Positions 5,605 to 7,197 of a stretch of 64,000 nt of DNA are shown here, piece by piece (position 1 is the stretch's first letter; each line of letters starts with the position of its first letter). Under the pieces are notes generated by a model. It was not told the DNA's origin. It searched no databases and saw only the letters and a program-made list of their open reading frames with translations. Position numbers and translations under genes: made by a program. Source of the DNA: Eledone cirrhosa (taxonomy: Eukaryota); contig OZ024741.1 in assembly GCA_964016885.1 (NCBI GenBank), forward strand, positions 230,020,001 to 230,084,000, in the 5' to 3' direction.

Positions 5605-5889
5605 TTAAATGTAGAAGTAATCTTTCAATCCAGCATCCGGGTATTTGAATTTGCTGATAGCAATATTGCGCCGCCTCTTCCGATTCATATAGTTATTGTT
5701 AGCGACCGACCTTCTCTTAGTAATAATGATATTCAGAAAAGGGTTGGTTTCCGCCTGAACCCGATAGCAAGCAGTAGAACAGAAGACGTCGATAAAGCAA
5801 CACCTGGGTGCAAGAGCTTCTGTGCCTTGCGTAAACAAGAAACAGAAGAGTGACGCACAAACGACCATTCTTATTACTTGGAAATCCAT
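5605..5889 (-). CDS. Putative secreted cysteine-containing peptide precursor (94 aa; neuropeptide- or toxin-like)
   Basis: Non-repetitive ORF with a hydrophobic N-terminus ending TEA, then LAPR-CCFIDVFCSTACY-R and KRR/RKRRR basic sites. Start context is gaaATGg. A pyrimidine-rich tract and TAG acceptor lie 12 nt upstream of the ATG (exon starts at 5901). Confidence 0.7.
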   Translation of the reverse strand: MDFQVIRMVVCASLFCFLFTQGTEALAPRCCFIDVFCSTACYRVQAETNPFLNIIITKRRSVANNNYMNRKRRRNIAISKFKYPDAGLKDYFYI

Positions 5890-7197
5890 TTCAAATGATA
5901 ACTAGTATGATAGACACAAAGAGTGTGTGAGAGAAAGGGGTATAAAAAAAGAGTGTATGTGTAAGAGAGAGAGAGACAGAGCAAGAGAGAGTGAGAGACA
6001 AATCTTTACTTAAATATACGTGTGCATGTACATATTACTGTATGTATATATCAATGTCCGTTGGAAATTAACAAAAGGGAAAAAGTACAAGAAACAAAAA
6101 AAATAAAAATGAAATAAAAATCCTCTCAAATGATTTGCTCGTTTGCAGCTAGAAAATGTTTCAAAAATTATAAATTCAGGTTTTTCTTTCTTCTATTTTC
6201 CTTTTTTCTCTCGTTGTTTCAAAATGAATTCTTGTTTCCAATGTCCGTTCGAGTTTGCCTTTTAAAGTTTCTGCTGTTCTTTCTGTCCTTTCAAATTCTT
6301 TTTTTCCTGTATTTTAGTTATCACAGCACGACCGTTGCCAAATATTTGGACAAAATGGGACGGAAATTGTAATGGTTTGCGATTAGCCAATGTCTTCAAA
6401 GTATTTTACACCCAGGTTTCAAAAACTAAGATACTTCCGCAATCAATTCTTATAGCTAGAGACAGATATGGTTTGTTTTTGTAATGACTTGGCGGCAGAA
6501 GCAGCAGTAGATTTCGTCTTGGGCCGGTAAATTCGTTTTTAATTCGTCCCGATTTCTTTATATGTTTCTTTTTTTGGTCGTTGTTGTGTGTGACAATAGC
6601 AATGTTTTGAGTAGTGGTGATGGTAGTGGTAGTGGCTTTCTCTTATTTTCTTTTTTTTTTTTTTTTTGCTTCGTTTTAGTTCTTTTTGTGGTCGTAATTG
6701 TTGGTGCTACCGATGTCAAAGTTTTTTCACTTACTAAACCAAGACGCGTTTCTTGAAATTTTGTTTGTTATAGCCTTCACCTTTTAAAAACCCTTAATTT
6801 TTTATTTTAAGTTTTAAAAAATTCCGAAAAGAATTTTAACGAAAGTTTAACAAATAACGAAAATATTAACAGCAATAATAATAATATTAATAATATTAAT
6901 AATAATTACTGCCAATTCCAGAACAATGCCCCTTCGTTTTGCGTTGTTAATTCTAACGCAATTTTTCTTAATACCACAGTTCGGTTTTTCTTTCTTTTGT
7001 TCTTTGTTTTTTTCTTCTTGTTACTTTTTGTTTGTTGAAAGTGGCGTGGGCTTTTAAGGGTATTATATATATATATATGATATATATTTAAAGATGGCTT
7101 GTGTCATTGTTTTTTATGCTGTTCTTGTTGGTGTTATGAAGAAGCGCCGGTAGCTCATCACAGTGTGATTGAGACACCCCGTTGAGAGAGCTCACCA

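Follow-up and report, generated by a model that had tools for sequence, protein, structure and literature searches.

Whether a short open reading frame (ORF) set in the microsatellite and retroelement DNA of an octopod genome encodes a secreted peptide precursor, and of what kind, is the question raised by this locus of Eledone cirrhosa. The frame lies on the minus strand, as do all stranded parts of the candidate gene discussed here, within a window of 64,000 nucleotides (the whole stretch of contig OZ024741.1 that was analyzed, to which coordinates refer unless another locus is named). An original prediction had read it as the precursor of a secreted, convertase-processed peptide; translation from 5889 to 5605 bears out the gene-like anatomy and yields a predicted prepropeptide of 94 amino acids closed by a stop codon (5605..5889). 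The 94-codon frame is probably a real gene, and we consider its translation highly likely. The explanation that we favor, with confidence somewhat above even, is narrower: a lineage-restricted, secreted prohormone-type precursor for neuroendocrine peptides. This model starts from features that are directly observed, namely the sequence anatomy, the single copy, and the depletion of ATG upstream.

The start codon has G at −3 and at +4, and GC content reaches 42% in the ORF (GC3 49%), the DNA on its two sides having 30% and 26%. The first 25 residues form a predicted signal peptide (5815..5889), likely cut after T-E-A; the signal-like character claimed for them is reflected in a hydropathy maximum of 2.64 over residues 9–17, and a crude signal rule recognizes the ORF, its first match placing the cut at residue 22. 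The four cysteines of the mature region (residues 30, 31, 37, and 41) make up a CC-x5-C-x3-C core, CCFIDVFCSTACY (residues 30–42; 5764..5802), which lies between R29 and R43 just as had been described. Downstream are a convertase-type KRR site (5710..5718), with a donor-like AAG|GTCGGT at 5710 overlapping its last codon, and a furin-type RKRRR site (5668..5682), written in four different codons with no simple repeat. Both sites had been predicted and both are present, giving the ORF the dibasic and furin-type cleavage sites of the prohormone class; the furin motif itself is R-x-K/R-R, as set out in part of PMC3061863. In first-look searches of its own 3.0 Gb genome, where copy counts are lower bounds, the ORF matches only itself, both as protein and as DNA, and is single-copy; four weak protein matches (E 0.06–8.8), considered as possible paralogues, looked non-coding on inspection. 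Three sequencing runs from one sample match the locus as continuous genomic contigs without joints, which confirms the assembly only.

Cleavage at these positions would release three peptides. The predicted main product is a 32-residue peptide with all four cysteines (residues 26–57; 5719..5814), its limits set by the signal cut and KRR, with a mass of ~3616.7 Da with two disulfides and a net charge of 0. It would be accompanied by a 9-residue spacer peptide (residues 61–69; 5683..5709; 1025.4 Da) and a C-terminal 20-residue peptide with an aromatic-rich end (residues 75–94; 5608..5667; 2365.2 Da, net charge +1). No predicted peptide has a C-terminal glycine, so amidation is not expected. The original prediction had proposed a disulfide-bonded 13-mer, the Arg-flanked core itself, or an extended form of it as the released product. 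At monobasic sites, a further basic residue is usually found 3–6 positions upstream, according to the portion of PMC8557429 consulted, and R29 and R43 both lack such a helper residue; the 32-mer is therefore the likelier product, release of the 13-mer, which would have a mass of 1469.5 Da, is unlikely, and we reject the latter as the probable product.

An ORF of this length could also arise by chance, as an untranslated frame that lies between genes in unique DNA or on a non-coding transcript. To gauge how rare the features are, a background set was drawn up of 213 complex ATG-initiated ORFs of 60–200 residues in 264 kb (the window plus 100 kb on each side). Single features are fairly common in this set, which favors chance: the crude signal rule is satisfied by 9 ORFs, a dibasic site occurs in 78 and the R-x-K/R-R furin site in 8, an acceptor-like site in 10, a good start context in 29, and a cAMP-response-type (CRE) palindrome within 2 kb in 22. 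The CC-x5-C-x3-C framework occurs in one ORF, the target. All features jointly (signal-like start, cysteine framework, KRR/RKRRR, start context, and acceptor-like tract) are likewise found in 1 of 213, again the target itself, a fraction that overstates significance because the rules were set after the target had been seen. When residues 26–94 were shuffled, the framework arose in 639 of 200,000 trials, and the framework together with two runs of at least three basic residues in 15 of 200,000. Codon usage is not decisive. Under a codon model built from GPCR exons at 28 loci (2 of 30 loci having been dropped for stops), the score of the target is reached by 33 of 212 background ORFs and lies above that of 19 of 68 chunks of true coding sequence; a GC3 excess equal to that of the target is seen in 7 of 89 GC-matched ORFs. 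Two further points favor chance: the ORF was picked as the best-looking one of the window, and no homologue was found in the searches described below. Against chance stand the joint features, unique in the background set, and a strand-specific upstream pattern found independently of the choice of ORF.

This pattern is a stretch of 1,071 nt without a sense-strand ATG (6034..7104), a putative long 5′ leader. Dinucleotide shuffles give an expectation of 12.7 ATGs for this interval (zero in 0 of 2000 shuffles), and CAT is present in 19 copies; of all 64 trinucleotides there, none is more depleted than ATG (z −4.6). Because the bounds 7104 and 6034 were chosen between ATGs, run lengths were compared over the whole region instead. 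The run is the longest of 188 complex ATG-free runs in the 264 kb, the next being 596 nt, and the longest of 329 complex runs in 945 kb over both strands, where 0.003 would be expected from the tail of the distribution. The sole other run above 600 nt, of 1,019 nt, was set aside as a tandem array. With bounds fixed at 7060–5890, there are 2 ATGs against 12.9 expected. Most simply, as far as sequence composition can tell, the ATG-free kilobase would reflect a long 5′ leader in which upstream AUG is selected against, and a non-coding transcript would have no reason to avoid AUG. The leader, which had gone unremarked in the original prediction, adds independent support to the reading of a secreted, processed precursor that the anatomy already supports; a chance ORF is an unlikely account of the locus. 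The control genes display no such pattern: 27 of 28 GPCR loci have 7–31 ATGs in the kilobase upstream, and near the host neuropeptide Y (NPY) gene the ATG-free run is 478 nt and the nearest CRE lies 20.8 kb upstream. The leader is thus unusual even among real genes, and its status as untranslated region is something we infer. In a first-look genome search it is single-copy apart from three matches of 35–51 nt.

At the head of the ATG-free run sit two promoter-like elements. One is a full CRE palindrome, TGACGTCA (7217..7224), in a putative promoter; it has 8 copies in the 264 kb, and since 22 of the 213 ORFs have one within 2 kb, the CRE is weak evidence alone. The other is a TATA-like AT stretch (7066..7090), with TAAATA at 7090 and TATATA at 7086, 7077, and 7071, of a kind common in the host genome; the putative transcription start would lie just downstream of it. 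The promoter stretch was single-copy in a first-look genome search.

The splicing of the leader may be read in more than one way. Two candidate donors, AAG|GTGAAG at 6780 and TTA|GTAAGT at 6734 (6729..6783), were scored against a donor consensus; their use is doubtful because ATG depletion persists over 6734–6042 (0 against 8.7 expected), something an intron would not need. The two ATGs left upstream of the ORF (6033 and 6027) both belong to a 7-codon upstream ORF (6010..6033), which may be a true uORF or intronic. Between this and the start codon lies a pyrimidine-rich, AG-free tract (5902..6003) with a branch-like CTCAC at 5931 and an acceptor-like TAG whose AG, at 5903–5902, precedes the ATG by 12 nt. 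Pyrimidines make up 75% of the 40 nt leading up to the TAG, and no other AG occurs between 6003 and 5904; the tract is partly degenerate (TC)n/(AC)n microsatellite. Of the splice acceptor that had been claimed, the sequence pattern stands, its use in splicing being putative; position 5901, given as the end of the candidate, corresponds to the presumed exon start, the ORF itself beginning at 5889. An acceptor at 5901 is plausible from this pattern, and the exon layout proposed has a precedent in the same genome: the control NPY/NPF precursor exon (positions 1504–1677 of locus L029, minus strand, on C8) has its acceptor, identified by eye, 17 nt ahead of its start codon. Two arrangements come into question: a short intron, with a weak donor near 6040, may take out both upstream ATGs; alternatively, no splicing occurs in the leader, which then has a uORF, and 5901 would be no acceptor.

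The downstream side of the frame raises a further alternative, namely a longer gene of which it forms only the first coding exon, spliced at 5710 (phase 2, within the KRR codon) or at 5803, with the rest of the ORF being intron; the signal, with or without the cysteine core, would then be joined to downstream exons. The donor-like AAG|GTCGGT at 5710 agrees with 7 of 9 consensus positions, a CAG|GTGTTG is present at 5803, and the host NPY exon likewise ends in an arginine codon. Introns that break a basic cleavage site in the same phase are known for CCWamide/agatoxin-like peptide (ALP) genes, in the section of PMC8557429 concerned. The sequence past 5710 speaks against it: 34 codons after KRR stay open, with GC3 of 0.56, and carry the RKRRR site with its varied codons. 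Nor did the neighboring stretches examined offer a partner. The nearest exon-like GC-rich stretch (3703–4009), tried as a downstream exon, was rejected as a high-copy repeat, and Pfam matches in 6 of the 26 long neighboring frames scanned, a survey of long frames only, are all to retroelement domains. A longer gene is accordingly improbable, if marginally less so than chance. The stretch at 3703–4009, 1.6 kb beyond the stop of the ORF, is a ~306 nt fragment of a repeat that is young and high in copy number, with 2659 candidate copies in the genome, the best 39 other copies being 95–96% identical.

Searches for homologues of the 94-residue protein gave no Pfam family and no PDB chain at E 10, no match among 1.84 billion representative proteins, no exact-sequence match by look-up, and no homologue among the 2 near-length and 7 longer candidates considered from a set of 5.8 billion proteins; none of 159 pattern matches in metagenome contigs was confirmed as a homologue. 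An Rfam scan of 3000–9000 returned 70 matches, none at gathering score and nearly all on AT repeats. How far these blanks reach is indicated by a control: the host NPY exon recovered 12 proteins, 7 of them named from gastropods or bivalves and none named Octopus, so the blank ORF searches say little about cephalopods. On this comparison, they count against a close gastropod or bivalve orthologue; one annotated in a cephalopod would be compatible with them. Of 10 rows among the matches listed by the ESM Atlas, 6 are neuropeptide-precursor clusters (NPS, GnRH, NPF, AKH, PDH, and DH31), families unrelated to one another, with scores of 0.78–0.85, below threshold; recognition of the ORF is 2062, under the 2300 reached by most known-family proteins, and a search with residues 26–94 gave 0.79 at best. 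These rows reflect general precursor character at most and are a lead only. Three literal core motifs were not found in literature full text, a search that would miss diverged orthologues, nor, as literal matches, in the searched supplements of PMC6425005 and PMC8557429, sources seen in part; topic searches of the literature gave no description of such a precursor among the matches listed. Homology to other molluscs has been the main basis of cephalopod neuropeptide lists, which a short precursor restricted to one lineage can therefore easily escape.

The cysteine pattern invites comparison with known peptide systems, beginning with the conotoxin likeness of the original prediction. CC-C-C is cysteine framework I of conotoxins, whose precursors typically run from signal to propeptide to a mature peptide near the C-terminus, as described in parts of PMC4278219. 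Like the A-superfamily alpha- and rho-conotoxins and the T-superfamily chi-conotoxins, the ORF places CC-C-C in a short secreted molluscan peptide. Unlike conotoxins, its core is N-terminal, with its start 4 residues past the predicted signal cut and 52 residues between its end and the stop, with no propeptide after the signal and two multibasic sites downstream; unlike cone-snail conotoxins, it is octopod and single-copy, with loops of 5 and 3 and no Pfam or PDB match. The likeness thus holds for cysteine spacing and fails for precursor order and homology, and membership in framework I conotoxins is rejected, there being no homology in Pfam, PDB, or the 1.84 billion representatives.

Orexins invite a comparison of layout. 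Their cysteine spacing differs from that of the ORF core, and membership is rejected because the KRR of the ORF is preceded by Thr57 and not by the amidation Gly of orexin precursors, so that no amide would form; there is also no Pfam match. The likeness, of layout only, is to chordate orexin-A and ambulacrarian orexin precursors, in which the cysteine peptide directly follows the signal: orexin-A has four cysteines in two disulfides, and its precursor runs from signal peptide to cysteine peptide to basic site, as given in part of PMC4772807, where the molluscan homologue of orexin is named as allatotropin. The spiralian CCWamide/ALP precursors and the other cysteine-rich mollusc precursors CLCCY, CCCGS, FYFY, and GSWN resemble the ORF in being short, with a signal, basic sites, and a cysteine-rich peptide. 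CCWamide/ALP peptides have eight cysteines and are C-terminal and amidated (PMC8557429, in part), whereas the ORF has four, in an N-terminal peptide without an amidated aromatic end; membership is rejected on cysteine count, position, and amidation. CCCGS has 8 cysteines and FYFY 10, in the portion of PMC8398477 consulted. From its predicted sequence features, then, the ORF would act like a prohormone and appears to belong to neither conotoxins, orexins, nor CCWamides.

A salivary origin deserves separate consideration: the product may be a venom peptide directed at a receptor or ion channel of the prey, which it would block by means of a compact two-disulfide core that arrived at the conotoxin framework by convergence. 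That CC-C-C is framework I (PMC4278219, in part) is in keeping with this, as are blank homology searches, which would fit fast evolution. Cephalopod salivary glands express 44 secreted-protein superfamilies, 27 of them of unknown function, and many are short and without homologues outside Cephalopoda, some being cut at dibasic sites, according to the part of 10.64898/2026.02.02.703354 consulted. The same source, in part, describes octopod SF1 toxin genes as tandem arrays of 1–10 between NR-GRF and FABP, with tachykinin, neurotensin, or FLRFamide motifs, and, in a figure legend, SF24 as having cysteines and an oxytocin-like segment. The ORF resembles SF1 and SF24, so far as these descriptions go, as a short secreted precursor with predicted cleavage at basic sites. 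No tachykinin, neurotensin, or FLRFamide motif was seen in the ORF, and its single copy, set against the SF1 arrays as partially described, fits a signaling gene better than SF1 toxins. SF24 and the 27 superfamilies of unknown function may bear on the novelty of the ORF. Against a venom role also count the lack of a tandem paralogue, the precursor order unlike that of conotoxins, the unfavorable cleavage sites of the 13-mer, and a long AUG-free leader with a CRE, which would suggest regulated expression. A salivary toxin is possible, and less likely than a neuroendocrine peptide; we rate it about as unlikely as a chance ORF.

The anatomy points to secretion and processing, not to a tissue, and the product might come from a non-neural gland (reproductive tract, skin, or haemocytes) and act as a pheromone or in defense. 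Antimicrobial peptides of the cationic kind carry positive charge, unlike the predicted 32-mer (net charge 0) and 20-mer (+1). Cysteine-rich, lineage-restricted mollusc peptides with mainly non-neural expression do exist, such as Cragi-CCCGS in the part of PMC8398477 consulted. A gland peptide of this sort seems the least probable of the alternatives considered.

Under the neuroendocrine model, the transcription, splicing, cleavage, tissue, and target of the gene are matters that we infer. A CRE/TATA promoter near 7220–7070 would drive a transcript with an AUG-free leader of ~1 kb; by its signal peptide (residues 1–25) the chain would be led to enter the secretory pathway, and two disulfides may form there within residues 30–41. 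Furin or PC-type enzymes would cleave at KRR and RKRRR and a carboxypeptidase trim the basic ends, yielding the 32-residue four-cysteine peptide and the 9- and 20-residue peptides; these, unamidated, would be released and bind a receptor, most likely a GPCR. A bolder version, which we hold only tentatively, makes the gene the founding member of an undescribed cephalopod family, with an independently derived two-disulfide CC-C-C 32-mer serving as signal or venom, and with the 1-kb AUG-free leader and single uORF of a compact gene controlling translation.

If the gene is real, its peptides, with predicted masses of 3616.7, 1025.4, and 2365.2 Da, would offer a defined candidate ligand for octopus GPCRs that are still orphans; a salivary product would add to cephalopod venoms a disulfide-rich peptide whose framework is conotoxin-like. 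The orphan peptide gene is well-formed and its novelty as a family unproven; if true, it would add a new family to a type of gene that is already familiar, without amounting to new biology. Looking for a strand-specific kilobase devoid of ATG ahead of a short ORF could, in addition, bring to light further peptide genes that repeat-rich octopus genomes conceal.

Several observations were made in passing. Elsewhere in the window, positions 32565–34922 hold a large inverted duplication with the same 244-residue frame on both strands and no Pfam match, which we take to be a Penelope/GIY-YIG-like element. About three tandem copies of a ~600 nt unit occupy 12220–13900, with similar sequence again in loci L014, L024, and L025, and at 42208–43919 and 26476–27699 are broken remnants of LINEs, with Pfam matches to endonuclease, RT, and zf-RVT. 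A GC-rich satellite of short degenerate units, ~25 kb long, is situated 45–70 kb to the left of the window (loci L010–L012). Locus L005 contains, at 1828–2187 on the minus strand, a frame that looks like an N-terminal exon of a SERINC-type membrane protein. In the host genome at C20:26.51–26.55 Mb (L028, L037), a nonapeptide exon and a neurophysin exon are ~33.5 kb apart: a precursor exon with CFWTTCPIG-GKR, which we assume to be of octopressin type, sits 33.5 kb upstream of the neurophysin exon. Octopuses have two genes of octopressin/vasopressin type; one neurophysin exon only was found here. Among the receptor genes, the 7tm_1 gene at locus L067, directly behind a tandem array of ~60-bp units, has a GC3 of 0.85 against 0.30–0.59 in 27 others, and single-exon matches to rhodopsin-type GPCRs, at least 12 in number, are clustered at C2:147.7–148.1 Mb.
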